Below are positions 8,885-31,665 of a stretch of DNA of 64,000 nt, one piece after another (positions within the stretch are counted from its first letter, which is position 1; each line of letters opens with the position of its first letter). Below the pieces are notes generated by a model, which was not told the origin of the DNA, made no database searches, and saw nothing but the letters and a program-made list of their open reading frames with translations. Both the position numbers and the translations under genes were made by a program. The stretch covers positions 40,907 to 104,906 of the forward strand of contig LADT01000042.1 of NCBI GenBank assembly GCA_000961765.1. The letters are read 5' to 3'. This DNA comes from Clostridiaceae bacterium BRH_c20a. Lineage in GTDB: Bacteria; Bacillota; Peptococcia; Peptococcales; BICA1-8.

Positions 8885-8919
8885 ATCCTACCCTCCCTAA
8901 TCATTATTATAATGAACCC

Positions 8920-10101: not shown

Positions 10102-10244
10102 AAAACAAACCGCCCTTCTCAATAAATTAAGACGTAAACGTATAAAAAATCAGGATATTCTAGTGATATATCATCAATATACTAAGATGGGTGGTTACCG
10201 TTATGATTTTCCCTAAATGCTTATAAATAAGTATAGTTTCAATT

Positions 10245-12104: not shown

Positions 12105-12110
12105 CCCCCC

Positions 12111-12698: not shown

Positions 12699-13484
12699 TT
12701 ATAGTTTACTTATCGGTGCAACTATAATAGGATCATCGCTTTGCAGAATATAACCTTTATCTCTAAAGTAAGACATGCTGTAAAGGAAGACAATCTCTAA
12801 TACTCCAGTAATTAATCGAACAATTACGGATATTAAAATCATTTCAATTAATTTCGATGCTGGAACAACAAAGGCAAAGGCAAGCAGCGTAAATATTATG
12901 GCATTGACAAAAAGTCCTGTAGCTGTAGAAACAAACGTTCTTAACCAAAGCATACCGCCCTCTGTTCTGCGTTTAACAAAGTCAAATAAATTTACATTAA
13001 TTATACCGCCAACATAAGTCGCTAGCATACTGGAAATAGCTACCCTTGGCACTATCCCCATTAAGTTTTTAAATGTTCCAAAATTTTCTGAATTAAAAGA
13101 GGGAGCTGGTAGAAAAATTAACCAGATGAGGAACAGGGTGGAAAGGGCTCGCACTATAAACTGCGCATAGACGGAAGATTTAGCGATCTTTGGACCATAA
13201 AATTCATTTAAATAGTCTTCACCCAAGGCCAAAATGGGGTACATTAAAGACCCAGCAACTATAAAATATTCTACTCCCCCTACGGATAATCCCACGAATT
13301 TGGAGGAAGTAAAGGAAACCATGATCTGCAAACCGCCCATTAATCCTACAATAACAAATGGTGCATATTTCTTGCCAAATTTTTCTGCCAGCAAGCAACC
13401 TACGGAAATCGTTAATAAACCAAAAATACATGTTAATAAGAGATTTGGAACACCTGACCAAGGACCACTAATCCAAGGACCCAT
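12699..13484 (-). CDS. VUT/YhhQ-family (DUF165) transporter, queuosine-precursor-transporter-like
   Basis: 261 aa, about 6-7 TM. The segments SSMLATYVGGIINVNLFDFVKRR and TGLFVNAIIFTLLAF resemble E. coli YhhQ motifs as I remember them. Confidence 0.6.
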   Translation of the reverse strand: MGPWISGPWSGVPNLLLTCIFGLLTISVGCLLAEKFGKKYAPFVIVGLMGGLQIMVSFTSSKFVGLSVGGVEYFIVAGSLMYPILALGEDYLNEFYGPKIAKSSVYAQFIVRALSTLFLIWLIFLPAPSFNSENFGTFKNLMGIVPRVAISSMLATYVGGIINVNLFDFVKRRTEGGMLWLRTFVSTATGLFVNAIIFTLLAFAFVVPASKLIEMILISVIVRLITGVLEIVFLYSMSYFRDKGYILQSDDPIIVAPISKL

Positions 13485-13508
13485 GAAAAACCCTCCTTTA
13501 AATTTATA

Positions 13509-14387
13509 TTATATTTTTAAAATCTCCTTGCTAATCTCAAACCTTACAGTGCATAAAGGATTAACCACTTGACAAATTCTTAAATGAGCACACTGGCCTG
13601 TTAGAGCATAAGCCTCATCAAAAGTTATATTCAGTTTTTCCCGAATAAAACCAATCATTGACCGTGTCGCTTCTTTACAGGCTTCTACCAAATCTTCATT
13701 AGAAACAACTATTTCATAACTGTCTTTAGTCTCAATTAGTGGATGTTTTATACTTTTAGCTTTGATAACATTAACTGTTAGAGTTACTACACTTCCAATT
13801 TCAATTCCAGTTCCTAATACTTCCCCTTCACCCATGGCAGCATGAACATCACCCACCGCCAATAACGCTCCTTCAACACTTACCGGTAGATAAACCTTAC
13901 TACCAGGAGCAAGAGAAAGTACATCCATATTACCACCGTGATTACCTTGTCTTAAACAATCAATTTCTTCCAGGGGAGCAACTCCAATAGTGCCAATCAT
14001 GGGCTTAACAGGAAAGCTAATTTTCTCATTAAAAAATACTCTGCCATTTTCCACGTTTACCTTTTTCAAATAGGGCTTAGTGACCTCATCCATTAAAATA
14101 CCCATCCACTGCCCCATCCACATCTTACCCTGACTTTTCAAATCAATTTTGTCGATAGAAACTTCCAATAAATCGCCAGACTGAGCACCTTCAATATATA
14201 CAGGGCCCGTAATAGAGAGAATCCGTTGAGGATAATTACCGTCACTATAATCTTTTTCAAAGACTTCATCGGGAATTCCGGGAGAACGAGTTTCTATTTT
14301 AAAAGTTTCCCCATCTTCCACCTTAGCAATTGGTTCATTAAATGGTGACATGGTATGAATTATCTTTTCATCGGAAATAAACCGCAA
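13509..14387 (-). CDS. Acetamidase/formamidase-family amidohydrolase
   Basis: 292 aa. The N-terminal pattern (HTMSPFNEPIAKVEDGETFKIETR) and the GNHGGNMD / GDVHAAMGEGE segments are typical of the FmdA/AmdA family. Confidence 0.7.
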   Translation of the reverse strand: MRFISDEKIIHTMSPFNEPIAKVEDGETFKIETRSPGIPDEVFEKDYSDGNYPQRILSITGPVYIEGAQSGDLLEVSIDKIDLKSQGKMWMGQWMGILMDEVTKPYLKKVNVENGRVFFNEKISFPVKPMIGTIGVAPLEEIDCLRQGNHGGNMDVLSLAPGSKVYLPVSVEGALLAVGDVHAAMGEGEVLGTGIEIGSVVTLTVNVIKAKSIKHPLIETKDSYEIVVSNEDLVEACKEATRSMIGFIREKLNITFDEAYALTGQCAHLRICQVVNPLCTVRFEISKEILKI

Positions 14388-14557: not shown

Positions 14558-14590
14558 AAAAAAACCCCCCACCAATTTACAATGGCAGGG
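14558..14590 (-). terminator. Rho-independent terminator after the flavoprotein gene
   Basis: Minus-strand RNA reads CCCUGCCAUUGUAAAUUGGUGGGG followed by GGUUUUUUU. Confidence 0.6.
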
Positions 14591-14691: not shown

Positions 14692-15306
14692 TTAGCGAAG
14701 GCTTCTTGTGGCCAGGCTAACCTCGTAAATTCGCTTCACCATTACAGACAATTCAGCCTGGGCTCCCTGATCATCACTGGAGGGCTTTTGCGCTGCCACT
14801 CCGCAATGACCCGGCTTATCACTTCTATAGCTAGGATTGACTACAGTAATTCCTTGAATCAGCATAATATCCTGGATGGTACGCAAGGTTCCTTCCTGAC
14901 CTCCAAACCGCGAAGCACCCACGGCCACAGCACCACCAACTTTGTTTAGTAAAACCTTGCCCGTCCACATATAACGGGCCTTGTCCCAAAAGGCTTTTAG
15001 CTGAGCACTTACTGTGCCGAAGTATACCGGAGAGCCTACAATAATTCCATCTGCTTCCCTTAGCAGCTGGTGAACTTCATAGAGGGGACTGTCCACCACA
15101 CAGGCTCCCCTGCAGGGGGTTGAACAATTGGTGCAAAAGGGAACGGGAAACTGGTTCATGATTTCACCCGCCTGAATCAAGCAGGTAAGACCACCCATGG
15201 CCTCAACCTGTTCCATTGCTTTATTTAGCAGATATGCAGTGTTGCCATCTTTAATAGGGCTTCCATTTATACCCACAATAAATACAGGTTTCTCTCTTTC
15301 CAACAT
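14692..15306 (-). CDS. Flavodoxin-like FMN reductase / iron-sulfur flavoprotein family
   Basis: 204 aa. Contains VGINGSPIKDGNT, the Cys cluster CTNCSTPCRGAC, and GSPVYFGTVSAQLKAF. Confidence 0.65.
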   Translation of the reverse strand: MLEREKPVFIVGINGSPIKDGNTAYLLNKAMEQVEAMGGLTCLIQAGEIMNQFPVPFCTNCSTPCRGACVVDSPLYEVHQLLREADGIIVGSPVYFGTVSAQLKAFWDKARYMWTGKVLLNKVGGAVAVGASRFGGQEGTLRTIQDIMLIQGITVVNPSYRSDKPGHCGVAAQKPSSDDQGAQAELSVMVKRIYEVSLATRSLR

Positions 15307-15327
15307 TACCCACCTCTTTACTGCAAT

Positions 15328-16755
15328 TTATTTTAACTCTTTGAGGATCTGGACCACCCATTCCCTAGAAGTTCTGGTTTCCGCAGCCAGGAAGTCCACT
15401 TCCTCCTTACTTACATGGGTAATCTTGCTGCTTTCAAGTGAATTGCGGAGGTATGAGCGGCGTAATTTGCCCAAGGACTGGTCAGTCACTTGAAGCTGTG
15501 AAAAACGCTCCGGAATGACTATTGTTTTCCCCGGAACATTCTCTGCGGGGTCACCTCTTCTGATTTCAACGCCCATATTCTTGGCAAAATTCAACTGTGC
15601 CATAGGATGCTTTCCGGCCCCAGTGTATTCTGTTTCCTGGACAACAACTATTTCATCCTGGTCATATTCACTGGCAATTGCCAGGGCTGCAGCCAGGGAA
15701 GTATTGCCAGCGGGACCCCGCTCAAGTCCTTCTACTTCAGCCAAGGCCTGAGTGACATAGAAAACCTCTCCCTGGGTAACTGTAACATAACGGTCCAGGT
15801 AACGCAGAGGCCTAGCCGCACTCCGGGGAACATCGGTCCTGTCCGGCCAGGAAGCAAAGGGTACACCAAAGCCTGTATGCCCGGTGGTAAATGACTTACG
15901 GTTAAAATCATAGTCAGAGGCCATATGTAATCCCATCAGATCAACACTGACCCCAATTACCTTAGTATCAATACATCCGGCTTTCAACAGACCTCGAGCC
16001 GTTCCCGTTACATTGCCTCCCCCTGCGTGGGTGACAATAACAGCGGCCGGGTCCTGGCTATATCTTTCCCTTACCTGTCCGGCCAACTCATAGCCTAAAG
16101 TCTCCACCCCTGATATGCCTAGTGGGCTGTATAGGGATGCATTGAAAAATCCTGTCTCTTCTAAAAGAAGCAGAGACATGTAAAAAAGCTCCGGCCCAAC
16201 GGTCAACTGGATAACCTCCGCACCTAACGCCTCGCATTTACGGGTCTTTTCAATTATCTCAGGCTGTCCAATATGTTTGGAATCAAATACCTCTTGAACA
16301 ATGATGCACTTTAATCCCCTCATTGCAGCCTGAGAAGCGACAGCGGCCCCATAGTTGCCGCTGGTTGCAGCTATTACACCGGGATAACCTTTTTCACGGG
16401 CATGATAAACAGAGATGGAGGCCCGTCTGTCCTTAAAGCTCCCCGCAGGATTTGCGGCCTCGTCTTTGACCATAATCCGAGCCCCTTTTCCCGACGGCGA
16501 ATTGGCCCGGACCAGGGCTGTGAGATTTTTGAGCTCGAACAAGGGGGTATTGCCTACACCCGCCTGTTTCTGAATGGCCGCTGTTTCCTCCAGAGAATAA
16601 GCAGTATTATTCATCATTCCTTCATAATCAAAGGCTAGGGGCGATATTTCAAAGGCAGCGTAATCTATTCCTAAGGCTTTGTTCATTATGTCGTTTTTCC
16701 TGCCCAACACAGACCCATAAGATATGTCCTTTGTCAATTTTCCTTCACCCCCCAT
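15328..16755 (-). CDS. ortB: 2-amino-4-oxopentanoate thiolase beta subunit-like (PLP enzyme, OrtB family)
   Basis: 475 aa. Trp-synthase-beta-fold PLP motif NPAGSFKDRRA and ATSGNYGAA. Overlaps the upstream ~100-aa OrtA-like ORF by 22 nt. Confidence 0.8.
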   Translation of the reverse strand: MGGEGKLTKDISYGSVLGRKNDIMNKALGIDYAAFEISPLAFDYEGMMNNTAYSLEETAAIQKQAGVGNTPLFELKNLTALVRANSPSGKGARIMVKDEAANPAGSFKDRRASISVYHAREKGYPGVIAATSGNYGAAVASQAAMRGLKCIIVQEVFDSKHIGQPEIIEKTRKCEALGAEVIQLTVGPELFYMSLLLLEETGFFNASLYSPLGISGVETLGYELAGQVRERYSQDPAAVIVTHAGGGNVTGTARGLLKAGCIDTKVIGVSVDLMGLHMASDYDFNRKSFTTGHTGFGVPFASWPDRTDVPRSAARPLRYLDRYVTVTQGEVFYVTQALAEVEGLERGPAGNTSLAAALAIASEYDQDEIVVVQETEYTGAGKHPMAQLNFAKNMGVEIRRGDPAENVPGKTIVIPERFSQLQVTDQSLGKLRRSYLRNSLESSKITHVSKEEVDFLAAETRTSREWVVQILKELK

Positions 16756-17045
16756 AGCTGCTCCCGCAGTTCTGAACCGATACGCTGAAGTTCTGCCACC
16801 GCTGGCCCAAAACTCTGAGTATAACCGGGGTTGACCTCGGTTAGTTCTCCCTGGATTATCCGCCCTGTTACGGTTTTAATTGAGCAAAGCTGTCCTTTTT
16901 CACATTCATCCAGTGCAAAACCTTTTATCCACATTTCAAAGGGTACTGTACGTGTTTCTTCCGGCAGGGAAGCAAGCCTATCCTGAACTTCAAAAATTAT
17001 CCCATGAACCTCTACCCAGTCCCCTGGTTTACATTTTAAATCCAT
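16734..17045 (-). CDS. ortA: 2-amino-4-oxopentanoate thiolase alpha subunit-like (OrtA family)
   Basis: 103 aa. The pattern GDWVEVH...VPFEMWIKGF...TVTGR...G.L.EVNP.Y...FG matches my memory of OrtA. Sits directly upstream of OrtB. Confidence 0.7.
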   Translation of the reverse strand: MDLKCKPGDWVEVHGIIFEVQDRLASLPEETRTVPFEMWIKGFALDECEKGQLCSIKTVTGRIIQGELTEVNPGYTQSFGPAVAELQRIGSELREQLWGVKEN

Positions 17046-17061
17046 ACTTATCCCCCTTTCA

Positions 17062-18414
17062 TTACCACCCTTTAACCATATCTAAAACGTTGTCCGGCAC
17101 CTTACCACTAATGGCATCGGCAATTGCCCCTTCCAAAATAGATATTCCCCGGTCAAGCTCCTCTTGTGTAATTACTAGCGGCGGACAAATTCTTAAGACT
17201 GACCCGCTGAAGAAAGTAAGATAAAGTCCTTGTTCATAACAACGCCAGACTATTTTGGCCGCCAGATCCCGGGCTCTTTCCCGGGAAGATCTATCTTTAA
17301 CAAGATCCACACCTATCATAAAACCCTGTCCCCGTACCTGACTGATCTGTTCATATTCTTCCGCAAGACGGTTAAATCTTTCTCTGATGTAACGACCCAT
17401 TTCCTCCGTTTTCTTTAATAACCCTTCCCGGCGAATTATGCCAATAGTCGCTAGGGATGCAGCACAACAAATTGGATTACCTGAAGTACAGAAGACATGT
17501 CCCGGTGAAGTCCAGGCTTCAAAAATCTCCTTCCTAGCTACCAAGGCAGATAATGGCATCCCTGAGGCTAGTGCTTTGCCAATTACAATGATATCAGGCT
17601 CAAGATTAAAGTGTTCTATACCAAACCATTTCCCGGTGCGGCCCATGCCGGTCTGAACTTCTTCCGAGACAAAAAGAATCCCATGCTTCTTACAAAAATC
17701 ATAGAGATACTGCATATACTCCTGGGGCGGAATTATTATACCCGAATCTCCCTGAATGGGCTCCATGATTACAGCAGCCACTTCATCAGGTGAAAACAGA
17801 GTTTCAAACATCCCAAGAAAGTACTGATAGCAGGCTAAGCCGCATCTCTCGGCATTCTGGTGTCCTAGGGGGCACCGATAACAGTCAGGGTAGGGGACGT
17901 GATAAATTTCTGGTACCCCAGGACCGAAGTGATAACGCATGGGTAAACTGACCGCTGAAATGCCCATGGCGCCATAGGTATTGCCATGATAAGAACGCAA
18001 AAAGGCTATGATTTTCTGGCGTCCCGTATAAGCCCTGGCCGCTTTAATTGCCCCGTCATTGGCATCTCCACCGGAGACACCATATGCCACTCTTTTCTCA
18101 AAGTTCCCCGGGGTTATTACTGTTAGCTCTTCTGTAAGCTCTGTCAGTTTTTCGTGGAAAGCATATGCGGGGTTACAGTGGATTAAGGATTCTGCTTGTT
18201 CTTTAATTGCCTCTACCACTGCCGGGTGATTGTGGCCAACGTTTGAGATGGCGCCGAAGGAAAGGAAATCAATGTATTTCCTACCTTCCAGGTCCTCTAA
18301 AACAGCACCCCTGCCGGACTTCACAACTAAGGGAAAAAAGGGAATGCGGATAGAGCGGGAAAGCAGTTTCTCATCCTTATCAATTATAGACCGGGTTTTA
18401 TTACTGATATCCAT
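17062..18414 (-). CDS. Class-III (omega-) aminotransferase
   Basis: 450 aa. Contains SGGDANDGAIK, DEVQTG-type SEEVQTGMGRTG, and the PLP-lysine context IVIGKALASG. Confidence 0.85.
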   Translation of the reverse strand: MDISNKTRSIIDKDEKLLSRSIRIPFFPLVVKSGRGAVLEDLEGRKYIDFLSFGAISNVGHNHPAVVEAIKEQAESLIHCNPAYAFHEKLTELTEELTVITPGNFEKRVAYGVSGGDANDGAIKAARAYTGRQKIIAFLRSYHGNTYGAMGISAVSLPMRYHFGPGVPEIYHVPYPDCYRCPLGHQNAERCGLACYQYFLGMFETLFSPDEVAAVIMEPIQGDSGIIIPPQEYMQYLYDFCKKHGILFVSEEVQTGMGRTGKWFGIEHFNLEPDIIVIGKALASGMPLSALVARKEIFEAWTSPGHVFCTSGNPICCAASLATIGIIRREGLLKKTEEMGRYIRERFNRLAEEYEQISQVRGQGFMIGVDLVKDRSSRERARDLAAKIVWRCYEQGLYLTFFSGSVLRICPPLVITQEELDRGISILEGAIADAISGKVPDNVLDMVKGW

Positions 18415-18441
18415 AAACTAACCCCCTTTACACTTGATAAA

Positions 18442-19455
18442 TTAATCTAGTTTAACTTTTTGCCCAATCTTCCGGGCTAAGGCCTCTTGGTATACATGCC
18501 AGCCGCTCAGGACATCTTGGGCCGCTGTTCCGACACTCTTAAAAAGGGTGTAATCCTCCGGTGTGCGCCGCCCCTCTACTGAGCCCATCAGGACGTGCCC
18601 CAGTTCAATAACTTGTTCCTCTTTAATCAGGCCCTGGGCTAGCGGACGAGCCAGGTCTCCGGGGACAAAGGCAGCAGGCTTACTATCAACTGTAATAATA
18701 CTGGAGGCCTGTACCAGTTCCTCATCGATTTCCTGCATAGAGGAGCTAAATGAGCCAGTGGCATTAACATGGGTTCCCGGCTTTAGCCATTCTTTCCGGA
18801 CAATAGGCTCATAGGATGTAGTGCAAGCACAGATAACATCACTCTGGTTACATAATTCCGCAGCTGAAGTACAGATTATTATTTCTACGGGTCTGGCTGC
18901 TTTTTCCGTCAATTCCTTCAGTTGGCCGACTAGGGTTTCCACTTTACTAAGGGTCCGGGAATAGAGCAAAATCTTTTCGATGGGTCTTACTGCCAAGACA
19001 GCCTCGGCCTGATGGAAGGACATACTCCCTGCTCCCAGTACTCCCAAGGTAGACGCCTCTGGTCGGGCTAAGGCCGCGGTAGCCACAGCCGAAGCTGCTC
19101 CCGTTCGGATTGCCGTCAGGTAAGTAGCATCCATAACTGCTTCCAGTTGGCCAGTCTTATTATTAACAAGCATTAAAGATCCTATGGTTGCCGGTAGTCC
19201 CTGGGAGGGGTTTTCCGGAAACAGCGAAACGATTTTGACACTTAACAATTCTTCATCCCCCACCAAGCCGGACATAACCAGCATATCTGCTTCCTGTGAA
19301 GGGATGGAGACTTGGTGCCGTTGGGGAACGTTGACCTTTTTGTCTGCTATGTTAATAAACGCCTTGGATGTAGCTTCTATTGCTGCTTTTATTGGGAAAA
19401 GCTGTCGAACTTCAGCTTGGTTTAAAATTAACAAGCTATCAACTCCCGTTTTCAA
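18442..19455 (-). CDS. Ornithine cyclodeaminase / mu-crystallin family NAD(P) enzyme
   Basis: 337 aa. Contains DATYLTAIRTGAASAVAT and the Rossmann motif LGVLGAGSMSFHQ. Confidence 0.8.
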   Translation of the reverse strand: MKTGVDSLLILNQAEVRQLFPIKAAIEATSKAFINIADKKVNVPQRHQVSIPSQEADMLVMSGLVGDEELLSVKIVSLFPENPSQGLPATIGSLMLVNNKTGQLEAVMDATYLTAIRTGAASAVATAALARPEASTLGVLGAGSMSFHQAEAVLAVRPIEKILLYSRTLSKVETLVGQLKELTEKAARPVEIIICTSAAELCNQSDVICACTTSYEPIVRKEWLKPGTHVNATGSFSSSMQEIDEELVQASSIITVDSKPAAFVPGDLARPLAQGLIKEEQVIELGHVLMGSVEGRRTPEDYTLFKSVGTAAQDVLSGWHVYQEALARKIGQKVKLD

Positions 19456-20717
19456 TATTTGTTTTTATATGCCAACTGGCGAATGGCCTCTGCCAATACT
19501 GTCACCCCTGCCATGCATTGACTAGGGGATGTATACTCTTCCCCGCAATGGCTTCTGCCCCCAGTGCTGGGTACGAAGAGCATGCCGATTGGGGCAAAAC
19601 GAGCCGCCATAATGGCATCGTGCCCGGCACCACTAACCATTTCATGATAGTCAAGTCCGGCCTTACGAGCCGCCTCAGCTAAAATATCCCTTAATATTGG
19701 ACTACAAGGCACCGGTTCCACCGCCAGTATATTTTTCCATTCCACTAGTACGCCCGTTTGGGCTGCTACTTTTAGGGTCTCTTCCTCCAATTGACTATAC
19801 AAACCCTTTAGTTTTTTGGGATCAGGGTCCCGCATATCAATGGTAAAAACCGTCTCAGCGGCCACAACATTTACAGCCCCGGGGTTAGCTGAGATTCTGC
19901 CTACAGTAAATACGGTATCTCCCCCGGACTGTCGGACACATAAATCCATGGCCCCAATCATCTTGGCCGCGGCCAATAAAGCATCATGCCGCATTCCCAT
20001 GGGCGTAGTGCCCGCATGGTCACTGCGTCCCCTGATAGTGAGTTCTGCCTGTCTCATGCCCGTTATACCACTTACTATACCTATTGGACAACCCTTGGCT
20101 TCGAGTACGGGCCCTTGTTCAATGTGCAGTTCCAAAAAGGCTTCTACATCCGATCGTGGGGTAGAACCGGAAGGGGAGAGACTATAGCCAAATGCTTGAG
20201 CAGCGGCTTTCAGGGAAATACCGTTTTCATCCACTTTAACTAACTCTTTTTCTTCCAAATCACCGGCCATCCATTTACTGCCCATAAGACCGCTGAACCT
20301 GCTGCCCTCCTCGCCGATAAAGGCGATAACTTCAATAGGATTCTGCGGTCGGCCATAGGTTTTCAGCAGGTAGCCTGCTGCAATTATGCCACCTGCAACA
20401 CCCAGCATCCCATCATATATTCCTCCACCTCTAACTGTGTCAAGGTGTGAACCCATTGTGACAGCCCGGGCCTGGTTGTCTGTACCCTCAATACGGCCAA
20501 TTATGTTGCCAATACCGTCCTTTTTCACCTCAAAGCCGTGTTCTTTCATCCAGCCCGCTACAAGATTGGCCGCCTCCTCATATTCCTGAGTATAGGGGCT
20601 ACGCCACAGGCCAAATTCTCCAATGCCAACCTTTCCTAGTTCCTGCAGATAACTGGAAAGCAAAACTTCATACCCATGTGAATTGAGCTTTTGTAAATCT
20701 TTAGATATTTTCATCAA
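19452..20717 (-). CDS. M20 amidase of the hydantoinase/carbamoylase family (N-carbamoyl-amino-acid / beta-ureidopropionate / allantoate amidohydrolase type)
   Basis: 421 aa. Contains MGSHLDTVRGGGIYDGMLGV, IGEEGSRF and GRSDHAGTTPM. A 4-nt overlap links it to the downstream OCD gene. Confidence 0.8.
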   Translation of the reverse strand: MMKISKDLQKLNSHGYEVLLSSYLQELGKVGIGEFGLWRSPYTQEYEEAANLVAGWMKEHGFEVKKDGIGNIIGRIEGTDNQARAVTMGSHLDTVRGGGIYDGMLGVAGGIIAAGYLLKTYGRPQNPIEVIAFIGEEGSRFSGLMGSKWMAGDLEEKELVKVDENGISLKAAAQAFGYSLSPSGSTPRSDVEAFLELHIEQGPVLEAKGCPIGIVSGITGMRQAELTIRGRSDHAGTTPMGMRHDALLAAAKMIGAMDLCVRQSGGDTVFTVGRISANPGAVNVVAAETVFTIDMRDPDPKKLKGLYSQLEEETLKVAAQTGVLVEWKNILAVEPVPCSPILRDILAEAARKAGLDYHEMVSGAGHDAIMAARFAPIGMLFVPSTGGRSHCGEEYTSPSQCMAGVTVLAEAIRQLAYKNKY

Positions 20718-20720
20718 GTG

Positions 20721-21467
20721 CTAACCTCCCTGAAAAATTCCAAGCCCCTTTTTTAAGCTATCCATTAAGGCACAATCGGGAGCAGAGCCAGTATCTCGCA
20801 AACCTAAAATATCGAGAAATGCCCAGAAAATAGCTAGATTGGTAGAAACCACTGGGATGCCCAGGTCGTGCTCCAAGGGAGCTATTACTTCTAAGGTCCG
20901 TAAGTCTGTGGCCAGGATGCAGAGAGCATCAGCCCCTTTAAAACCCATAGCCCTAGCTTCCCGGTAGAGGCTTTCCGGGGTTACCCTTGTTACTGCATGA
21001 TAATCATCAATATCCAAACTTTTTAAGGCCACCGGGTTTAGACCCCATTCCTGAAAGTAAGGGGCTACAAGAGGCTGAATTGTAGAAGGATAAGGTGTAA
21101 GCACAGCCACATTTTTGGCCTGAAGCTCAATCAAGGCTTTGGCAGTGCATTGGGCGGCAGTAATCAATTCCACTCCCTGCCCCTGTATACGCTCCTGAAA
21201 GGAGCAATCCCACTGTTTTCCTTTGACCAGGCTGGTTGACATGCAGGCATAGACAATAACGTCCACCTGGGAAAGAGCAAGTTCACCAGTACCACGGGAA
21301 GCCTGGGTTTCCATGCGGTTCAAAGCTTCTGAATTAAAGGCTCCCTCCACAATCATTCGTGTGGCAAAAGCCGCCGCCCCTTCAGGTAAGACTTTACTCA
21401 TTTCGGGTTCAATAATAGTATTATTGGCAGGAATCAAAAGACCAAGTTTACCTCTCCACCCGTACAT
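20721..21467 (-). CDS. Asp/Glu/hydantoin-racemase superfamily enzyme (maleate-isomerase / arylmalonate-decarboxylase-like)
   Basis: About 248 aa from MYGWRGKLGLLIPANNTIIEPE (RBS GAAAGGA). Two candidate catalytic Cys (VYACMSTS; ALCILATDL) sit at the spacing known for maleate isomerase. Confidence 0.7.
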   Translation of the reverse strand: MYGWRGKLGLLIPANNTIIEPEMSKVLPEGAAAFATRMIVEGAFNSEALNRMETQASRGTGELALSQVDVIVYACMSTSLVKGKQWDCSFQERIQGQGVELITAAQCTAKALIELQAKNVAVLTPYPSTIQPLVAPYFQEWGLNPVALKSLDIDDYHAVTRVTPESLYREARAMGFKGADALCILATDLRTLEVIAPLEHDLGIPVVSTNLAIFWAFLDILGLRDTGSAPDCALMDSLKKGLGIFQGG

Positions 21468-21547
21468 TTTAACTATCATCCTTTCACTATGCCCAAGGCA
21501 CAAAAACTAATGATGTCATCTCATTCTCAATTCTCCATTTTCAATTT

Positions 21548-22912
21548 TCAATTCCTAGAAACACTCTCTCCGTAACCGGGTTTTACAATTATAGTGCCGC
21601 TGTCATATACCCATTTCCCCCGGACCATGGTTTTCTCAACCCTACCCTGGAGTGTTACTCCCTCAAAAGGAGTCCATTTCGATTTGCCCAGCAGTGCCTT
21701 TCCTTGGACCTTCAAACTGACCCTAGGGTCAACTATGGCTAGGTCAGCATCTACCCCCGCAGCTATGGTCCCCTTGCGGGGGTAAAGGCCTAGCCAACGG
21801 GCAGGCTGTTCAGACATAAGGTTGACGATATTCTCTATGGTAATTCTTCCTCGACTGGCGGCATCCAGCATTAGGGGCAAAGCTGTTTCTAAGGTGGGGA
21901 CACCACTGGCCCCTTTCCAGATATCCTCTTTTCCTGCTATCTTTTCTTCCCAGCTATGGGGTGCATGATCTCCGCCAATCATGTCGATTGTGCCATCAAC
22001 AAGCTCGGTCCACAGAGCTTTAACCATGTCTGCTTCCCTAAGAGGCGGAGCCATCTTAGCTGCCGGTCCTAAACGAAGCATGTCATCGGTGTTCAGAAAA
22101 AGATGATGGGGATTTACTTCGATCTTAATATCTGCCAAAGACTTTAAAGCTTTATAAGCTTTTATTACGTTAAGTGCCTCCATTGTGCTTATCTGCCGAA
22201 ATAGAAGCCGGACATTTGTTACCCTAGCTATTTGAGTGATGCGGGCCACCTCGGCAGCTTCCGCCACCGGTGGTCTGGCCTGTACCCAGGCCAGGGGATC
22301 TATCCGGCCACTATTTTGTAAGTGCTCTGTTTCGGCAGCAACTATGCTGGCATCGGTGGCATAAACAGCCACCGGCAGTCCCAGCTGGACCGCGTTCCTA
22401 AAAATTTGCAAGTAATGGGCTCCATCTCTAACCAACCACCCCTCAGGTACATCGCAGGCAGCAACATCCAAGATAATGGCTCCTGCATTTTTTAGAGCTA
22501 CCAAATTTTTGATGTTTTGAGGGGTCACTTGGGCACTCACCCCAAAGTCAACTACACAACGGTCCTGACCCAATTCCAGTAAATTCCTGATACTGGCGCT
22601 ATCGACAGCAGGGGGAGACGTATTAGGCTGTGCCACCACAGTTCCATACCCCCCGGCCGCAGCTGCACAGGTCCCGGTGTAGAAATCCTCCTTTTGGGTA
22701 TAGCCGGGGTCCCGCAGGTGTACATGTGTATCAACTAGAGCAGGAATTACCAGTTTACCCTCGGCATTATAATAGCCGTCAGCTTCCGGCACATTTGAAC
22801 AGTCGGAAATAGCAATGATACGGCCGTTCTTAATGGCGAGATTGGCTTTACCCCTCCAGGAGGAGGTTACTACCTCTCCATTCATCACCACATAATCAAA
22901 CAAACCTGTCAC
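21548..22912 (-). CDS. Cyclic amidohydrolase (dihydroorotase / dihydropyrimidinase / allantoinase-like)
   Basis: 454 aa. The metal motif VDTHVHLRDPG and ...AQPNTSP parallel the operon-encoded PyrC (IDMHVHLREPG...MPNTNP), but the protein is longer and divergent. Confidence 0.8.
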   Translation of the reverse strand: MTGLFDYVVMNGEVVTSSWRGKANLAIKNGRIIAISDCSNVPEADGYYNAEGKLVIPALVDTHVHLRDPGYTQKEDFYTGTCAAAAGGYGTVVAQPNTSPPAVDSASIRNLLELGQDRCVVDFGVSAQVTPQNIKNLVALKNAGAIILDVAACDVPEGWLVRDGAHYLQIFRNAVQLGLPVAVYATDASIVAAETEHLQNSGRIDPLAWVQARPPVAEAAEVARITQIARVTNVRLLFRQISTMEALNVIKAYKALKSLADIKIEVNPHHLFLNTDDMLRLGPAAKMAPPLREADMVKALWTELVDGTIDMIGGDHAPHSWEEKIAGKEDIWKGASGVPTLETALPLMLDAASRGRITIENIVNLMSEQPARWLGLYPRKGTIAAGVDADLAIVDPRVSLKVQGKALLGKSKWTPFEGVTLQGRVEKTMVRGKWVYDSGTIIVKPGYGESVSRN

Positions 22913-22970
22913 CCCTTCTTGAAACTAATATTCATGCTGCAATTATCTTACATCTCAGCTTTTTCTTTAA

Positions 22971-24269
22971 TTACCTGGTTATGCCCACGCTATCAGGATA
23001 GGTAATGCTAGGCAGATAAAGGGTCAATTCTGGCCAGTAGGTGATTAAAAGCAGGGCAATGAGAGTTACAGCTATAAAAGGCAGTACTGCTGGAATTATC
23101 TTGACCATAGGCACTTTGGTAACACCTGTAGCAACAAATAAGTTTAAGCCAAAGGGCGGTGTATACATACCAATTGCTAGATTTGCCGTCAGCACAACAC
23201 CCAGATGAACGGGGTTAATGCCCATTTTCATTGCCATTGGATAAATCAAAGGAGCAAGAATGGTAACCGCCGCCGCTCCATCCATAAACATCCCGGCAAC
23301 TAAAAAGAGAACGTTGATAGACAACCAGAAGACTATCTGAGTGGTATTGGGACCCAGCATCATTTCTGCTAAGAGCTGCGGGGCCTGGTTAACGGTAAGA
23401 ACCCAGCCAAAAACTGAAGCTCCAGCTACCAAAACCATGACACCCGCCAGGGTTATAGTGGACTCGAGAGCCGTTTCTAGCAGAGACTTCCAAGTGAACT
23501 CCTTGTAAACATACATCCCCACGAAGGCAGCATATACAGCCGAGACACCGGCTGACTCTGTGGGAGTAAAGACCCCTGTATAAATTCCACCGAGAATTAT
23601 AAAAGGAACTCCAAGAGCCCAAGCCGCATCCTTACCTGTCCGAACAATTTCCTTTAAGCTAAAATGTGAATCAGGCTGGCGCTTTCCTTTGACGGCTACA
23701 TAATAGGAGTAGGCTAGGATAGAAATTCCGAATATTATACCGGGTATAATGCCAGCCACAAATAAGGCGCCGATGGAAACTCCAGTAACCGTACCATAAA
23801 CTATCAGAGTTATGCTGGGGGGAATTAGAATAGCTACAGCACCGCTAGCAGTAATCAAACCAACGGCAAAGGCACTGTCATATCCCTTTTTTGTCATTTC
23901 GGGATACATAAACCCGCCCATGGCGGCAACAGTGGCTGGGCTTGAACCAGAAAGGGCTCCAAAAAACATACAAGCCAACTGGGTAGTAAGAGCCAGACCC
24001 CCACGCATAAAACCAGCTAAGCAGAGGGTAAACTCCAAAAGCCTTTGGGCAATACCTCCTCTACGCATTATGTCTGCAGCAAAAATAAAAAAGGGCATAG
24101 CCATCAAGGAAAACTTATCAATTCCGGCAAACATCCGCTGAGCCACAACGGAGGTTGGTATATCACTACCAAAGATTAATGCCAAAAGAGGGGCAAAGGA
24201 TAGTGCGATAAAAATAGGCACCCTAGCAAAAAGCATGAAAAAAAGAACCAAAAGCATAGAAAGAATCAT
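22971..24269 (-). CDS. TRAP transporter large permease subunit (DctM family), system 2
   Basis: 432 aa polytopic protein. Paralog of 2016-3293 and contiguous with a DctQ-like ORF. Confidence 0.9.
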   Translation of the reverse strand: MILSMLLVLFFMLFARVPIFIALSFAPLLALIFGSDIPTSVVAQRMFAGIDKFSLMAMPFFIFAADIMRRGGIAQRLLEFTLCLAGFMRGGLALTTQLACMFFGALSGSSPATVAAMGGFMYPEMTKKGYDSAFAVGLITASGAVAILIPPSITLIVYGTVTGVSIGALFVAGIIPGIIFGISILAYSYYVAVKGKRQPDSHFSLKEIVRTGKDAAWALGVPFIILGGIYTGVFTPTESAGVSAVYAAFVGMYVYKEFTWKSLLETALESTITLAGVMVLVAGASVFGWVLTVNQAPQLLAEMMLGPNTTQIVFWLSINVLFLVAGMFMDGAAAVTILAPLIYPMAMKMGINPVHLGVVLTANLAIGMYTPPFGLNLFVATGVTKVPMVKIIPAVLPFIAVTLIALLLITYWPELTLYLPSITYPDSVGITR

Positions 24270-24755
24270 TTACTGCTCCCCTCCTTCTTTAAAAGTTAAG
24301 TAAAAATGCTGAGAAAATCTAAGAGCTCCCAGACCAAAGCCCAGCGGCAGACAAAAGTACACCAAGTAAAAAGGCAGTTGTAAGGCAGGTGATTTCTGGG
24401 CTGTAGCCATCTGCTTACTCACCGTCTCAAAGCTGTAAAAAATCATCATTACACAAAAAACAATAGAGACCAGGTCAGCAAATAAAGTCATGTACCTCTG
24501 ATTCTTCTTGCTGAGAAATGCGGCAAAAAAATCGATGCTGACATGGGCATTCTTACGGGCATTGAGACCGATCCCAATAAAAGTAGCCCAAATAATAAGA
24601 TAGCGGATTAATTCTTCAGACCAAGGCAAACCCGCTTTAAAGACATAACGCAGAACCACGTTAATAAACATCAGCGCTGTGGCTAGTATAAAGCCCAGCG
24701 AACAAAACCATTCTTCAGCTTTGCCAATTAAAGTGTTAAGCTTTTCCATGGACAT
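24270..24755 (-). CDS. TRAP transporter small permease subunit (DctQ family), system 2
   Basis: 161 aa, 4 TM, positioned between the DctP-like and DctM-like genes. Confidence 0.8.
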   Translation of the reverse strand: MSMEKLNTLIGKAEEWFCSLGFILATALMFINVVLRYVFKAGLPWSEELIRYLIIWATFIGIGLNARKNAHVSIDFFAAFLSKKNQRYMTLFADLVSIVFCVMMIFYSFETVSKQMATAQKSPALQLPFYLVYFCLPLGFGLGALRFSQHFYLTFKEGGEQ

Positions 24756-24860
24756 ACCACCTTGTTGTTTTGAATTTTAATTTTTTTAAAAAAGGAGAGG
24801 CTCCTTCTGGCAGCCCCTCCCTGGAGGTCTTAATGGCATGATTCAATTCTTGGCTTCCTA

Positions 24861-25928
24861 TTATTTATTGGCTTCCTCAGCGGCTTTCTGGAGCTCAGTT
24901 ACCATATCTGCGCCAACGCGGCCGGAAACGAACTCAACAACAGGCTTGGAGGCAGCTTGGAAAGCCGTAAGTTCTTGCTCACTTGGAACGTATACTTCCA
25001 TCTTGTTCTTTTTCAGTTCTTCCAGCCACTTATCGGAGTTGGTCTTCATCTCTTCCCACTCGGACTTGGAAGCGAATATAGCAGCCTCACTAACATTCTT
25101 CTGAATATCTGCAGGCAGTCCGTCAAACCACTGCTTGTTGGCTACAGTAATATACAAGAAGGGAGCGTGGTTGGTCACGGTTACAACCTTCTGAACTTCC
25201 CAAAGCTTCAGCATGACAAGAGTCTGAAAGCCGTTCTCTTGCCCATCAACAACTTTTTGCTGGAGAGCGTTGTACATTTCACCGTACTCGATAGGAGTAG
25301 GATTTGCTCCAAAAGCCTTATAGGTCTCAATTAGGATAGGTGCTGGCATAACACGGAACTTCATACCTTTTAAAGCTGCCGGTCCTTTGATGGGGACGTT
25401 GGCTGTCATCTGCTTTAAACCACCGGTTTCCATTCCCAGTGCAACCATACCCTTTTCTTCTAGCCCCTTATTGATTTTAGCTGCGGCAGGACCAAACATA
25501 ACTTCCTGAGCTGCATCCATGTCTTTGAATAAGAAAGGAATATCATAAACCTCTAAGGCTTGGTTAAAGTTAGAAAGCACGGAAGTAGGCTGCTGGGTCA
25601 TTTCGATAGTACCGTTGGCAGCTTGCTCAGCTTGCTCTCTCATCTGTCCCAACTGCATATTGGGGAAAATAGTTACCTGAACCTGACCGTTACTGAGTTC
25701 TTCCACTTTTTGTTTAAAGGCTTCTACGCCGCGATGCTGCGGGCTGTTAGTATCCTGATTATGACCAAATTTAATTTTGTAAGTTTTTGCTTCCTTAGCA
25801 GGCGCCGGGTCAGACTTGGAGTCAGGCGCCGGAGCAGGTGTTGGATCAGGTTTTGAACAACCTGCCAATGCTAAAACTAAGACTGCTACCAAACACACAA
25901 CAATAAGCTTTTTAAAGTTAAACTTCAT
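24861..25928 (-). CDS. TRAP transporter substrate-binding protein (DctP family), lipoprotein, system 2
   Basis: Start trimmed to MKFNFKKLIVV (RBS AGAGGAGGAA). Lipobox LALAGCS, a Pro/Ala-rich linker, then a DctP-like body. Confidence 0.85.
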   Translation of the reverse strand: MKFNFKKLIVVCLVAVLVLALAGCSKPDPTPAPAPDSKSDPAPAKEAKTYKIKFGHNQDTNSPQHRGVEAFKQKVEELSNGQVQVTIFPNMQLGQMREQAEQAANGTIEMTQQPTSVLSNFNQALEVYDIPFLFKDMDAAQEVMFGPAAAKINKGLEEKGMVALGMETGGLKQMTANVPIKGPAALKGMKFRVMPAPILIETYKAFGANPTPIEYGEMYNALQQKVVDGQENGFQTLVMLKLWEVQKVVTVTNHAPFLYITVANKQWFDGLPADIQKNVSEAAIFASKSEWEEMKTNSDKWLEELKKNKMEVYVPSEQELTAFQAASKPVVEFVSGRVGADMVTELQKAAEEANK

Positions 25929-26062
25929 TTTTATTCCTCCTCTTTTTTTCAATCAAATTTTGTTTGTCTTAAATAGGAAAACGCAACACGGGACAGCTTC
26001 CTCTCATCACCTCCTTAAATGACCTGACCTTACTTTACTTAAAAACAAATCCGATGAATTGG

Positions 26063-26974
26063 TCAATTCCGAGTGTGGGCAGCTCCCACTAGGCTGTTAA
26101 CATCTTCTATCCCTTTTTCTTCTAAATATTGTTCAAGCCCTGCTAAAATTTTAGGCGCAGCCATGGGGTCGAAAAAGTTAACTACACCCAACGCCACTGC
26201 CTGAGACCCTGCCAAAAGAAACTCAATGACATCACGGACATTGGCAATTCCCCCCATCCCGATAATGGGTATCTTCACGTTTTGGTATACCTGGTAAACA
26301 AGGGCGACAGCAATGGGACGGATAGCTGGCCCCGAGAGGGCTCCCATCACATTTCCCAAAAATGGCTTTCTTGTTTCTATATCAATCATCATAGCCCTGG
26401 GAGAGTTGATCATAGAGATAGCATCAGCTCCAGCAGCTTCTACAGCCTTGGCAACCTCGATAATATTGGACTGATCAGGGGGAAGCTTGGGGATTAAGGT
26501 CAGCCCTGTTTTCTTTCGGGAAAGAGCTACCACCTTGTAAGCCATATCCTTGTTAGCCCCAAACTGCAGACCTCCTGCCTTCACATTGGGACAGGAAAGG
26601 TTTAATTCAATCCCCGCCAGAAAGCCCAACCCATCACTTAGTTCAACTATCTCGGCATATTCTTCTTCAGTCCGTCCCACAACACTTAAAATAACTGGGG
26701 TCTTAAGTGCTTTAAGCTTAGGTACATCCTCGCTGACAAACATTTCCCAGCCTTTACTGGGTATACCCACTGCGGAAAGGACCCCGGAGGGGGTTTCTGT
26801 TATCCTCGGAGGAGGATTGCCAGGCCAAGAATAAGCCCGGACTGTCTTTGGAACAAAGGCGCCGAGTATATCAGGAGAATAAAGGCTCTCATAATCCAGA
26901 CTATGGCAGCCTGAACCTGTTGTTATGGGATTTTGCATTTTTATTTTACCAATCTTTACGGAAAGATTAACCAT
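26063..26974 (-). CDS. pyrD: Dihydroorotate-dehydrogenase type 1B catalytic-subunit-like flavoenzyme (PyrD-like; possibly an orotate/pyrimidine reductase)
   Basis: Start trimmed to MVNLSVKIGKIKMQNPITTGSG, giving an 8-nt overlap with the pyrK-like stop. Contains the active-site motif IELNLSCPNVKAGG and the FMN-binding tail IIGMGGI. The IGLQNPG-type loop is divergent (VGIPSKG). Confidence 0.75.
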   Translation of the reverse strand: MVNLSVKIGKIKMQNPITTGSGCHSLDYESLYSPDILGAFVPKTVRAYSWPGNPPPRITETPSGVLSAVGIPSKGWEMFVSEDVPKLKALKTPVILSVVGRTEEEYAEIVELSDGLGFLAGIELNLSCPNVKAGGLQFGANKDMAYKVVALSRKKTGLTLIPKLPPDQSNIIEVAKAVEAAGADAISMINSPRAMMIDIETRKPFLGNVMGALSGPAIRPIAVALVYQVYQNVKIPIIGMGGIANVRDVIEFLLAGSQAVALGVVNFFDPMAAPKILAGLEQYLEEKGIEDVNSLVGAAHTRN

Positions 26975-27788
26975 TTGAGACCACCTCCCAGGACAAGAAA
27001 ACAGGTCCTTCTTTACATACCCGCTTATAACACCTGCTCTTCTGATCCTGACCTTGATATAGTTCAACCACACAACCCTGACAGGCTCCTAGTCCGCAGG
27101 CCATATACTGGTCTAGGGATATCTGGGCATTAATTCCCTGCCGGTGAGCCAGGTGGTGGATATTTTTAATTAAACTGCAGGAAGGACAGAAGTCGCATAA
27201 TCCTCCCATATAAATCTGATCCAGCTTGATCTTACCAGCTACCCGTTCCAACTCCTTTGTCATAAATGGACCACATCTCCAGGCACCGTTGTCCGGGTAG
27301 AATAACAATTCACCTTTTCCTTCAAGGAAGCTAAAAGAGTGCAAAAGCTCAGTGTATTTCGAGCTTAGGAAAGCATATACCCCCACTCCCTTTGCTGCAG
27401 CCTGATCAATTAAGGCAGCTAAGGGACCTATGCCTGTATCTCGACCCAAAACCGCAATATTTTTAGCTGAAGCAGGAAGGGTAAAGCCATTACCCAAGGG
27501 GCCCAATATTGAACAAGTATGACCTGGTTCCCAGGTCGTCATAATCTCAGTACCCTGGCCTACAACCTTGTATAGGATATCAATAACCCCTTCTTCCTTA
27601 TAGATTCTCGAGACCGTTAACGGCCTTCTGAACAAAGGATCGGTCTGTTCAGTTAGCCGGAGCATTACAAACTGTCCGGGAACAATGATGCGGGCTATTT
27701 CCGGGCACTCTAATTTAATCAGCCAGAAATTTTCCATAACTTTGCTATTTTCTAATACTTTACCACTGATATCATACTTTTTGTCCAT
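26967..27788 (-). CDS. pyrK: PyrK-like FAD / 2Fe-2S electron-transfer subunit
   Basis: 273 aa. Ferredoxin-reductase fold with the C-terminal motif MACGLGACQGC...C..GPVF. Confidence 0.75.
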   Translation of the reverse strand: MDKKYDISGKVLENSKVMENFWLIKLECPEIARIIVPGQFVMLRLTEQTDPLFRRPLTVSRIYKEEGVIDILYKVVGQGTEIMTTWEPGHTCSILGPLGNGFTLPASAKNIAVLGRDTGIGPLAALIDQAAAKGVGVYAFLSSKYTELLHSFSFLEGKGELLFYPDNGAWRCGPFMTKELERVAGKIKLDQIYMGGLCDFCPSCSLIKNIHHLAHRQGINAQISLDQYMACGLGACQGCVVELYQGQDQKSRCYKRVCKEGPVFLSWEVVSNG

Positions 27789-31442: not shown

Positions 31443-31642
31443 ATAAAGTAATTCTCCTTTGCTGGAAGTTATCCAATCTTTAAGAATACATTATTCTTGC
31501 TAAAAAACGGGCCATTTGAGTGACTGTATTTTCTGAAAGTTCATCTTTTTTTATTCGCCATTTTTTATGTGAAGTCCTTTACTTTATTTGCGGAAAGAAT
31601 AGGAAGCTCTTTATCCAAAAGTGATAAACGAGATAAGAACAC

Positions 31643-31665
31643 CCTTCGGATATACTCCGAAGGGT
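31643..31665 (-). terminator. Hairpin CCCUUCGGAGUAUAUCCGAAGGG downstream of the TAXI-TRAP permease gene
   Basis: Perfect 8-bp GC-rich stem, but the following U-tract is weak (UGUUCUUAUCU). Confidence 0.45.

Follow-up and report, generated by a model that had tools for sequence, protein, structure and literature searches.

Genes for the ornithine-pathway thiolase OrtAB at the tail of a conserved, putative ureide-catabolic operon in an anaerobic member of the Bacillota

We analyzed a 64,000-nucleotide stretch of DNA from Clostridiaceae bacterium BRH_c20a (assembly GCA_000961765.1, contig LADT01000042.1, positions 40,907 to 104,906; hereafter the window, numbered from its first letter), which is identical to contigs of Opalinus Clay rock-porewater metagenomes and carries ortA and ortB, the genes for the two subunits of 2-amino-4-oxopentanoate (AKP) thiolase. 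The window is contained in contigs Ga0247256_100049 (JGI 3300030427) and k127_95172 (ENA ERZ937902). In the ornithine pathway this enzyme converts AKP and CoA to acetyl-CoA and D-alanine (PMC8803604, PMC13397332). In the window, the two genes follow genes for an ornithine cyclodeaminase (OCD)/mu-crystallin family enzyme and for a pyridoxal phosphate (PLP) enzyme of the class-III aminotransferase fold, and these four genes form the tail of a putative operon of 15 co-directional, tightly spaced minus-strand genes. The order is SsnA-like amidohydrolase, AOR-family enzyme, PyrK, PyrD, DctP, DctQ, DctM, a cyclic amidohydrolase (hereafter the ring hydrolase), Amdase/EutA-like protein, M20 ureidohydrolase, OCD-family enzyme, class-III enzyme, OrtA, OrtB and FMN_red flavoprotein. 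Terminator-like hairpins lie on either side of the operon (Table 1), the upstream one being its likely 5' boundary; in number, terminator-like sites in the region are not above the shuffled expectation. The GC content is 0.45-0.50 across the operon (positions 14700-31400) and 0.36-0.42 in the flanks, which is compatible with horizontal acquisition. A search with Rfam at gathering thresholds returned no riboswitch or leader match anywhere in the window, and thus no clue to the substrate.

Both thiolase subunits are orthologous to those of the oxidative L-ornithine pathway of Clostridium sticklandii and C. difficile (orr, oraSE, ord, ortAB) and pass their equivalog models: OrtB scored 826.2 bits against NF040741 (cut-off 550) and OrtA 109 bits against NF040739 (cut-off 70), with ~72% and ~49% identity, respectively, to their counterparts in canonical ornithine loci. 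In these loci the genes run Ord, OrtA, OrtB, OraS, OraE, MutL and, optionally, Orr, and ortAB was directly flanked by ord and oraSE in all six that we examined. The first-pass annotation, made from the sequence of the window, had placed OrtAB outside this ornithine context, and we agree: Ord, OraS and OraE from a canonical locus (L008) gave no tblastn match within the 64-kb window, and DapB_N/DAP_DH_C (Ord), OAM_alpha/Lys-AminoMut_A/B12-binding (OraS/OraE) and Ala_racemase_N (Orr) domains were absent from its Pfam-scanned open reading frames (at least 120 aa, leaving out short frames antisense inside longer genes). No glycyl radical enzyme or activase was found among the same reading frames.

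The arrangement recurs elsewhere. The order TRAP transporter, ring hydrolase, Amdase-like protein, M20 enzyme, OCD-family enzyme, class-III enzyme, OrtA, OrtB is present in four lineages (the window, L005, L006 and L098), none of which has ord, oraS, oraE or orr beside ortAB; it was seen in GCA_049323895.1 (OrtB 88% identical), in GCA_012839295.1 (OrtB 80%), where genes for an amino-acid permease and an M24 protein come first, and on contig L098 (OCD-family enzyme 64%). Over the four lineages OrtB is 78-100% identical, and the thiolase genes always come immediately behind the class-III gene; the flavoprotein gene also follows ortB in L005. Since the same gene order is shared by four lineages with OCD-family identity down to 64%, the arrangement is not due to chance. 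The system is rare, and its OrtAB-containing version was seen in a few anaerobic Bacillota: when 185,579 species, represented by one genome each, were scanned with the class-III protein, only three close relatives came up (80-90% identity), followed by a match at 43%, and among 5.8 billion proteins only about 11 clusters were at least 55% identical to the OCD-family enzyme. No report of this gene combination turned up in our literature searches.

Table 1. Genes of the putative operon and the hairpins on either side of it (window coordinates).
Feature	Position	Strand	Basis or remark
ortB, PLP-dependent beta subunit of AKP thiolase	15328..16755	-	NF040741, PALP fold
ortA, AKP thiolase small subunit	16734..17045	-	PF22010 (106 bits), NF040739
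Class-III-fold PLP enzyme, probably a racemase/epimerase of the isoleucine 2-epimerase (ILEP)/broad-specificity racemase (BAR) type	17062..18414	-	PF00202 (377 bits), NF006228
OCD/mu-crystallin family NAD(P) enzyme	18442..19455	-	PF02423 (226 bits); probable start TTG 19434 (330 aa)
M20 ureidohydrolase, N-carbamoyl-L-amino-acid hydrolase/allantoate amidohydrolase type	19452..20717	-	TIGR01879, NF006771
Amdase/EutA/maleate-isomerase-like protein	20721..21467	-	PF17645 (85 bits); reading frame reaches 21503, orthologues begin MYGWRG
Ring hydrolase, between dihydroorotase, L-hydantoinase and allantoinase	21548..22912	-	TIGR00857
TRAP transporter DctP-DctQ-DctM, carboxylate uptake	22971..25952	-	Pfam DctP/DctQ/DctM
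PyrD (reading frame 26063-27073) and PyrK (26967-27788), class-1B dihydroorotate dehydrogenase (DHODH)-type flavoenzyme	26063..27788	-	NF005574; DHODB Fe-S/FAD domains
AOR-family tungsto/molybdoenzyme	28120-30021	-	Pfam AFOR_N/AFOR_C
ATZ/TRZ/SsnA-superfamily amidohydrolase (475 aa)	30015-31442	-	Amidohydro_1; 7-nt overlap with AOR gene
FMN_red/WrbA-like flavoprotein, last gene of the putative operon	14692..15306	-	PF03358 (101 bits)
Terminator-like hairpin and T-run after flavoprotein gene	14567..14590	-	consensus match only
Terminator-like hairpin (10-bp stem) between upstream TAXI-TRAP genes and amidohydrolase gene	31641..31665	-	consensus match only

OrtA and OrtB had been described as translationally coupled through a 22-nt overlap. 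The coupling holds with either of two start options for ortB, the overlap being 22 nt only if translation begins at ATG 16755 and 4 nt (TTGA, shared with the OrtA stop) if it begins at TTG 16737. The latter is preceded by GGTGAAGGA and matches the position at which the OrtB orthologue of L098 begins, and is possibly the true start. To the further suggestion that the thiolase may have a new substrate the sequences lend no support. The OrtBs from this gene context (n = 5) form a single clade that tracks the gene cluster, and upon comparison with 115 other OrtBs (120 sequences in total) they differ at five well-conserved columns, all conservatively (M17L, V240I, A261C, A269V and E336Q); no solved OrtB structure was found on which to map these residues. 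For OrtA, a short query with which a word-indexed homologue search returned four proteins only, an exhaustive HMMER search supplied 139 representatives of the family: none of the columns that are at least 80% conserved is altered in all four context OrtAs, and only the window OrtA carries Gln at position 77, where His is 82% conserved. An apparent loss of a Cys to Met in OrtA, seen against four canonical sequences, disappeared in the alignment of 139 representatives, in which Met is the commonest residue at that position. A functional shift of OrtAB was rejected on these clade-specific analyses, both of which were negative. As the conserved positions of OrtA and OrtB are undiverged and the equivalog cut-offs are passed, the active site appears unchanged and AKP is still the expected substrate; by analogy with the ornithine pathway, the products should be acetyl-CoA and D-alanine.

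The class-III gene had been read as an omega-aminotransferase, as automatic annotation would also label it. The fold assignment stands, with the PLP domain and the Schiff-base lysine (Lys280) present, and the function is where we differ. The best matches of the protein in the PDB were ILEP (431 bits) and the BAR of P. horikoshii (416 bits), followed by Ala/Ser racemase (ASR; 355 bits), amino-acid amide racemase (308 bits) and alpha-amino-epsilon-caprolactam racemase (264 bits), whereas gamma-aminobutyrate (GABA) and ornithine transaminases reached at most 289 bits in the same list; the protein also passed NF006228 (631 bits, cut-off 608). In ILEP and ASR, an essential aspartate (D222 and D234, respectively) lies beside the substrate C-alpha, 57-58 residues ahead of the Schiff-base lysine (PMC6047364). 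Asp223 and Lys280 of the window enzyme align with D222 and K280 of ILEP, giving it a racemase-type active site; the motif EPIQGD[SA]G is present in 6/6 orthologues (EPIQGDSG in the window), in contrast to QGE in 23/23 other readable class-III homologues, and the Glu of EP(I/V)QGEGG that is typical of the transaminases of this fold is replaced in the window enzyme by Asp223. Because it combines the Asp223/Lys280 signature with racemases and epimerases as its closest characterized relatives, the gene probably encodes an amino-acid racemase/epimerase rather than an omega-transaminase; one Pyrococcus paralogue of the racemase group is on record as having no racemase activity found (PMC6047364). 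Formation of a 4-oxo group through transamination by this enzyme, as had been proposed, is thus unlikely.

That an OCD-family enzyme precedes these genes, as first annotated, is borne out by its Pfam match (Table 1). Its start had been said to overlap the stop of the carbamoylase gene, that is, the M20 gene; this 4-nt overlap would require the most upstream TTG (19455), and TTG 19434, with GGGAG ahead of it and a gap of ~17 nt, is the likelier start, since 328-330 aa is the length of the protein in the public gene call and in all orthologues. Within the OCD/mu-crystallin family the enzyme falls in a subfamily without equivalog assignment. Its PDB matches are pyrroline-2-carboxylate (Pyr2C) reductase (209 bits), archaeal alanine dehydrogenase (AlaDH; 158 bits) and iminosuccinate reductase (112 bits), with true ornithine cyclodeaminase (P. 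putida OCD) at only 88 bits, and it scored 132 against the ornithine cyclodeaminase equivalog NF005762 (cut-off 350).

The genes upstream of these four point to ureide hydrolysis. The M20 enzyme passed TIGR01879 (402; cut-off 204) and NF006771 (418; cut-off 399), and matched L-carbamoylase 3n5f (265 bits) and AllC (243 bits) in the PDB. The ring hydrolase passed TIGR00857 (pyrC_multi; 331, cut-off 279), failed the allantoinase model (303, cut-off 358) and was closest in the PDB to Arthrobacter L-hydantoinase 1gkr (260 bits), ahead of allantoinase (201 bits) and dihydroorotase (190 bits). This protein and its orthologues carry Asp or Glu (ILD or SFE) at what we take to be the site of the carbamylated lysine of hydantoinases and allantoinases, as well as a 6-residue insertion relative to PyrC, and look like a distinct subfamily of cyclic amidohydrolases. 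The Amdase/EutA-like protein retains the first catalytic cysteine (YACMSTS) and scored 94 against the EutA model (cut-off 318); since the second catalytic position is Ala in 6/6 orthologues, it is not a classical two-Cys racemase.

PyrD scored 338 bits against the DHODH-1B equivalog NF005574 (cut-off 269), and PyrK, in which the DHODB Fe-S and FAD domains are present, missed its equivalog cut-off (127; cut-off 314). Linkage of the two genes with the cluster was seen in L005, L006, L014, L094, L096 and L101 as well as in the window, and their products probably form a reductase running in the catabolic direction. The window also holds a pyrimidine biosynthesis operon (49576-58016; pyrB, pyrC, carA, carB, pyrF and pyrE) without pyrK or pyrD, the sole PyrK/PyrD of the window being those of the catabolic operon, which may serve both directions unless a second copy is encoded elsewhere. 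For the TRAP binding protein (24861-25952), the orotate-bound structure 4NN3 was the second-best PDB match (157 bits), with C4-dicarboxylate binders scoring about equally (PMC11668362), and we rejected an assignment of its ligand from 4NN3 as not decisive. The amidohydrolase at the head of the operon scored 189 against the SsnA model (cut-off 444), and in L014 and L101 the same amidohydrolase stands beside a xanthine dehydrogenase (XDH)-family Mo enzyme in place of the AOR-family enzyme. There are three AOR-family genes within the 64 kb (in 5015-12515 and at 28120-30021); the one at 6538-8391 is accompanied by a polyferredoxin, a ThiS/MoaD-like reading frame and a Pyr_redox_2 flavoprotein and resembles NAD-linked AorABC-type aldehyde oxidoreductases.

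Parts of the operon also occur without the thiolase. One sister lineage (L014/L094/L101) has PyrK, PyrD, TRAP, ring hydrolase, Amdase-like protein, OCD-family enzyme, class-III enzyme, amidohydrolase, a 2Fe-2S protein and XDH subunits, and no OrtAB nearby; another (L092/L103), without OrtAB and the class-III enzyme, has AllF, AllG, AllG, AtzD, amidohydrolase, MFS transporter, ring hydrolase, Amdase-like protein, M20 enzyme, OCD-family enzyme, a further M20 enzyme, a fumarate-reductase-like flavoprotein, TRAP, amidohydrolase, Fer4 protein and AOR. PyrK/PyrD, ring hydrolase, M20 and OCD-family enzymes are also found together in L096/L097. More distant homologues of the Amdase-like protein (33-44% identity) from marine and sediment metagenomes lie with a ring hydrolase, an OCD-family enzyme and an SsnA-like amidohydrolase, so that the analysis exposes a wider, uncharacterized module. 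Its contigs (L105, L108, L114, L128, L146, L147, L154, L158 and L162) carry one or two Amdase/EutA-like proteins, with or without an M20 enzyme, and varying partners, namely aspartate-aminotransferase-like enzymes, AtzE amidase with an isochorismatase-family hydrolase, F420/LLM oxidoreductases, an FAH-family hydrolase (one case), and ABC or TRAP transporters. On L162, one of the distant variants, the genes after the ring hydrolase encode an aminotransferase and an FAH-family C-C hydrolase/decarboxylase, which suggests that the amino acid of the pathway needs C3-C4 cleavage.

We compared the operon with known systems. Unlike in the ornithine pathway, ortAB is flanked here by a hydantoinase/carbamoylase module, an OCD-family enzyme and a racemase-type class-III enzyme rather than by ord, oraSE and orr. 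OrtAB apart from an ornithine cluster is not wholly new, the HplG glycyl radical route from hydroxyproline, which supplies AKP without D-ornithine aminomutase, being a precedent (PMC13450708); in the window the chemistry upstream of OrtAB is ureide hydrolysis instead. A parallel in architecture is offered by the recently described reductive uric-acid (2,8-dioxopurine) pathway with XdhD, YgfK/UacX, SsnA, HyuA, YgeY, YgeW/YqeA and YgeX (PMC12507026). Both combine an oxidoreductase of the Mo/W type, a flavin reductase (PF01180) that goes with an amidohydrolase of the SsnA superfamily, a hydantoinase, M20 enzymes and, as the terminal PLP enzyme, one of the PALP fold. In the uric-acid pathway the reductase, of the PF01180 or YgfK type, is coupled to SsnA, and there are carbamoyl-transfer and carbamate-kinase steps; a carbamate kinase gene also lies near the operon. 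The operon differs in having an AOR-family enzyme in the place of XdhD, a reductase that is paired with PyrK and matches the DHODH-1B model, and OrtAB in place of diaminopropionate ammonia-lyase as the terminal PLP enzyme. No window protein passed the SsnA, YgeY (best 173, cut-off 321) or D-hydantoinase (254, cut-off 393) models, and the window has no XDH or diaminopropionate ammonia-lyase. We therefore rejected a variant of the uric-acid pathway, the parallel being one of architecture only and purines giving a C3 rather than a C5 unit.

The hyu trio of Arthrobacter consists of hydantoin racemase, L-hydantoinase and L-N-carbamoylase. The operon resembles it in that the ring hydrolase is closest to 1gkr, the M20 enzyme is closest to L-carbamoylase and a racemase-superfamily protein lies between them, and departs from it in the missing second catalytic cysteine of that protein and the acidic residue of the ring hydrolase noted above. 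Clostridium oroticum ferments orotate through dihydroorotate and carbamoyl-aspartate to aspartate. Of the enzymes that this takes, the NADH-linked class-1B-type orotate reductase would correspond to PyrK/PyrD, the ring-opening enzyme to the ring hydrolase and the ureidosuccinase-type hydrolase to the M20 enzyme; among the relatives of the TRAP binding protein is one that binds orotate (PMC11668362). The C. oroticum pathway, in contrast, needs no OCD-family enzyme, racemase, Amdase-like protein, AOR-family enzyme or OrtAB and yields no AKP.

Ectoine/hydroxyectoine catabolism was considered in view of the EutA/EutC-like matches, the TRAP transporter and the class-III enzyme. The named NCBIfam similarities of the Amdase-like protein and the OCD-family enzyme are in part to EutA and EutC, and the two occur together in the distant variants, but the scores are far under the cut-offs (94 vs. 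318 and 187 vs. 472) and the window has no DoeA/DoeB pair. We rejected this assignment, given the low scores, the lack of a role for PyrK/PyrD or the carbamoylase, and a carbon skeleton that cannot give AKP. Allantoin degradation (allantoinase, AllC, the OCD-family or class-III enzyme acting on ureidoglycine, AllFGH with carbamate kinase) would suit the M20 and AllFGH genes of the window; it was rejected as leaving the PyrK/PyrD-TRAP linkage and OrtAB unexplained. As substrates we further considered, on paper, thymine, uracil, isoorotate, thiamine-pyrimidine, 7-deazaguanine, pterin/lumazine, creatinine, histidine-derived and lathyrine-type compounds, and with none of them does a common metabolite lead to a linear 2-amino-4-oxo C5 acid.

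The reading that we favour, tentatively and while holding it somewhat short of probable, is that OrtAB is the operon's own terminal, energy-conserving step, that the racemase sets stereochemistry and that the OCD-family enzyme is an amino-acid dehydrogenase; the substrates, the order of the steps and an origin of AKP inside the pathway are what we infer. The target would be a carboxylated cyclic ureide resembling orotate or a 5-substituted hydantoin. Following uptake by the TRAP transporter, the AOR-family enzyme, PyrK/PyrD and the SsnA-superfamily amidohydrolase would carry out ring modification, reduction and a first hydrolysis, the hydantoinase/dihydroorotase-like ring hydrolase would open the ring, the one-Cys Amdase/EutA-like protein would isomerize or decarboxylate the product, and the L-carbamoylase would free an L-amino acid. 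The class-III racemase would then convert the L form to the (2R) form used by OrtAB, and/or D-alanine to L-alanine; OrtAB would cleave the 2-amino-4-oxo acid with CoA to acetyl-CoA and D-alanine, and the OCD-family enzyme, as an NAD(P)-dependent, imine-forming amino-acid dehydrogenase, would release the last amino group as ammonia. A racemase makes stereochemical sense here because OrtAB yields D-alanine, from a D-ornithine-derived substrate in the known pathway (PMC13397332), and the ring hydrolase and M20 enzyme are closest to L-specific enzymes. We favour this reading because of the conservation in four lineages, the operon structure, this stereochemical logic and the lack of ornithine genes in the window, and also because OrtA and OrtB are canonical, the class-III enzyme has racemase features, the OrtB clade tracks the cluster, the uric-acid pathway is parallel in architecture and L162 has the gene set described above.

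In its fullest form, the favoured reading would make this a third route to AKP, without B12 or a glycyl radical, in which a carboxylated compound of the pyrimidine or hydantoin type is reduced, hydrolysed, decarboxylated or isomerized and decarbamoylated to L-AKP, which is then epimerized and cleaved by OrtAB. We regard such a route as possible but doubtful; if it exists, it is a new fermentation of an N-heterocycle that conserves energy as acetyl-CoA. The first-pass annotation had likewise suggested that a 2-amino-4-oxo acid is made here by a different route from that through D-ornithine aminomutase; this is reasonable in the light of the conserved operon and is weakened by several observations that tell against our reading as well. 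Among natural pyrimidines, purines and hydantoins we can name none from which the linear C5 skeleton of AKP would result; 5-acyl-orotates, 5-acetonylhydantoin and pyrimidinyl-alanines would work, and to our knowledge are not metabolites of such habitats. The conserved core (PyrK/PyrD, ring hydrolase, carbamoylase and OCD-family enzyme) fits a conversion of orotate to aspartate better than routes that yield AKP, and the simplest chemistry for it would lead from orotate through dihydroorotate, carbamoyl-aspartate and aspartate to oxaloacetate, with no AKP made; this core would be redox-neutral if the OCD-family enzyme were an aspartate (iminosuccinate-forming) dehydrogenase. Because the core persists in two sister lineages that have no OrtAB nearby, OrtAB is dispensable for the core or encoded elsewhere. 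Aspartate-aminotransferase-like genes occur in the distant variants, and the OCD-family enzyme passes no NCBIfam equivalog cut-off (best 290, cut-off 417).

In the strongest alternative the operon ends in alanine or aspartate and does not feed OrtAB: OrtAB would cleave AKP that arises through D-ornithine aminomutase and Ord, or HplG, from genes elsewhere, and would owe its place in the operon to the D-alanine formed, which would be converted by the racemase to L-alanine and by an AlaDH of the OCD type to pyruvate and ammonia. The fit of orotate to aspartate with the core, archaeal AlaDH as the second-best structural relative of the OCD-family enzyme, the kinship of the class-III enzyme with Ala/Ser and broad-specificity racemases, and the retention of the core in two sister lineages from which OrtAB is missing all agree with it, and D-ornithine aminomutase/Ord and HplG are the only two known sources of AKP (PMC8803604, PMC13450708). 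Even so, we consider this alternative unlikely: a split of ortAB from ord and oraSE is unusual, given that they were joined in all six canonical loci examined, and yet four lineages share it; the class-III and OCD-family enzymes persist where OrtAB is missing, so that disposal of D-alanine is not their primary role; and no ornithine or hydroxyproline genes lie within the window. Under either explanation the operon is of interest, as it would represent a new source of AKP and hence a new fermentable N-heterocycle or an unrecognized organization of alanine-centred nitrogen catabolism, in necromass-recycling anaerobes of deep clay porewater, digesters and hydrocarbon-degrading consortia.

Along the lines of the first-pass annotation, and in our view improbably, the carbamoylase would free a diamino acid such as 2,4-diaminopentanoate, whose 4-oxo group would be made by the class-III enzyme as a transaminase or by the OCD-family enzyme as a 4-dehydrogenase replacing Ord, with OrtAB cleaving the resulting AKP. 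The class-III fold, the lower-scoring hits to models of diaminobutyrate and GABA transaminases, the character of OCD-family enzymes as NAD(P)-dependent amine/imine oxidoreductases and the adjacency of the M20 and OCD-family genes speak for it, as do the two ureidohydrolase-type M20 genes of the island, which would suit a diureido or diamino intermediate as in the uric-acid pathway (PMC12507026). It conflicts with Asp223, where the other class-III homologues have Glu, and with closest characterized relatives that are all racemases. We also know of no natural hydantoin or pyrimidine giving 2,4-diaminopentanoate.

Still less probable is that OrtAB acts on another 2-amino-4-oxo acid, candidates being aspartate 4-semialdehyde from dehydroxylated orotate, to give formyl-CoA and alanine, and 2-amino-4-oxoadipate. 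An enzyme of the AOR or XDH family is invariably found with the cluster, which hints that an aldehyde or a (de)hydroxylation is involved, and the context OrtBs form their own clade; against this, no conserved OrtB or OrtA position shows a non-conservative change and both proteins clear their equivalog cut-offs by wide margins. That ortAB was merely inserted into an unrelated operon and is co-transcribed without a functional link, which the absence of OrtAB as an add-on from the sister lineages and a GC content consistent with mobility might recommend, we consider highly improbable, given its fixed position after the class-III gene in four lineages and an OrtB tree that tracks the cluster.

Outside the operon, a second M20 gene of the window (8920-10122) has weak YgeY/ArgE/DapE-like similarity (173 bits against YgeY), and genes of this type also accompany the cluster in L006, L092 and L094; two ureidohydrolase-type M20 enzymes could indicate a diureido intermediate. 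Positions 35004-49445 hold a carbamate kinase, an LctP-like permease, two AllF(FdrA)-AllG pairs, a PucR regulator, AllH, a cytosine-deaminase-like amidohydrolase and an AtzD/barbiturase-type ring-opening amidohydrolase. The same AllF-AllG-AllG-AtzD-amidohydrolase block adjoins the ring-hydrolase, Amdase, M20 and OCD-family genes in L092 and L103, and by analogy with oxalurate cleavage it suggests an ATP-yielding phosphorolysis of an acyl-urea from a barbiturate- or cyanurate-type ring product. Right after the operon, in this lineage only, a separate small unit (12699-14387) with its own terminator-like hairpin (12655-12635) comprises genes of the formamidase/acetamidase and Vut_1 families; Vut_1 is a putative vitamin uptake transporter in Pfam, and the gene is presumably of the YhhQ queuosine-precursor type.

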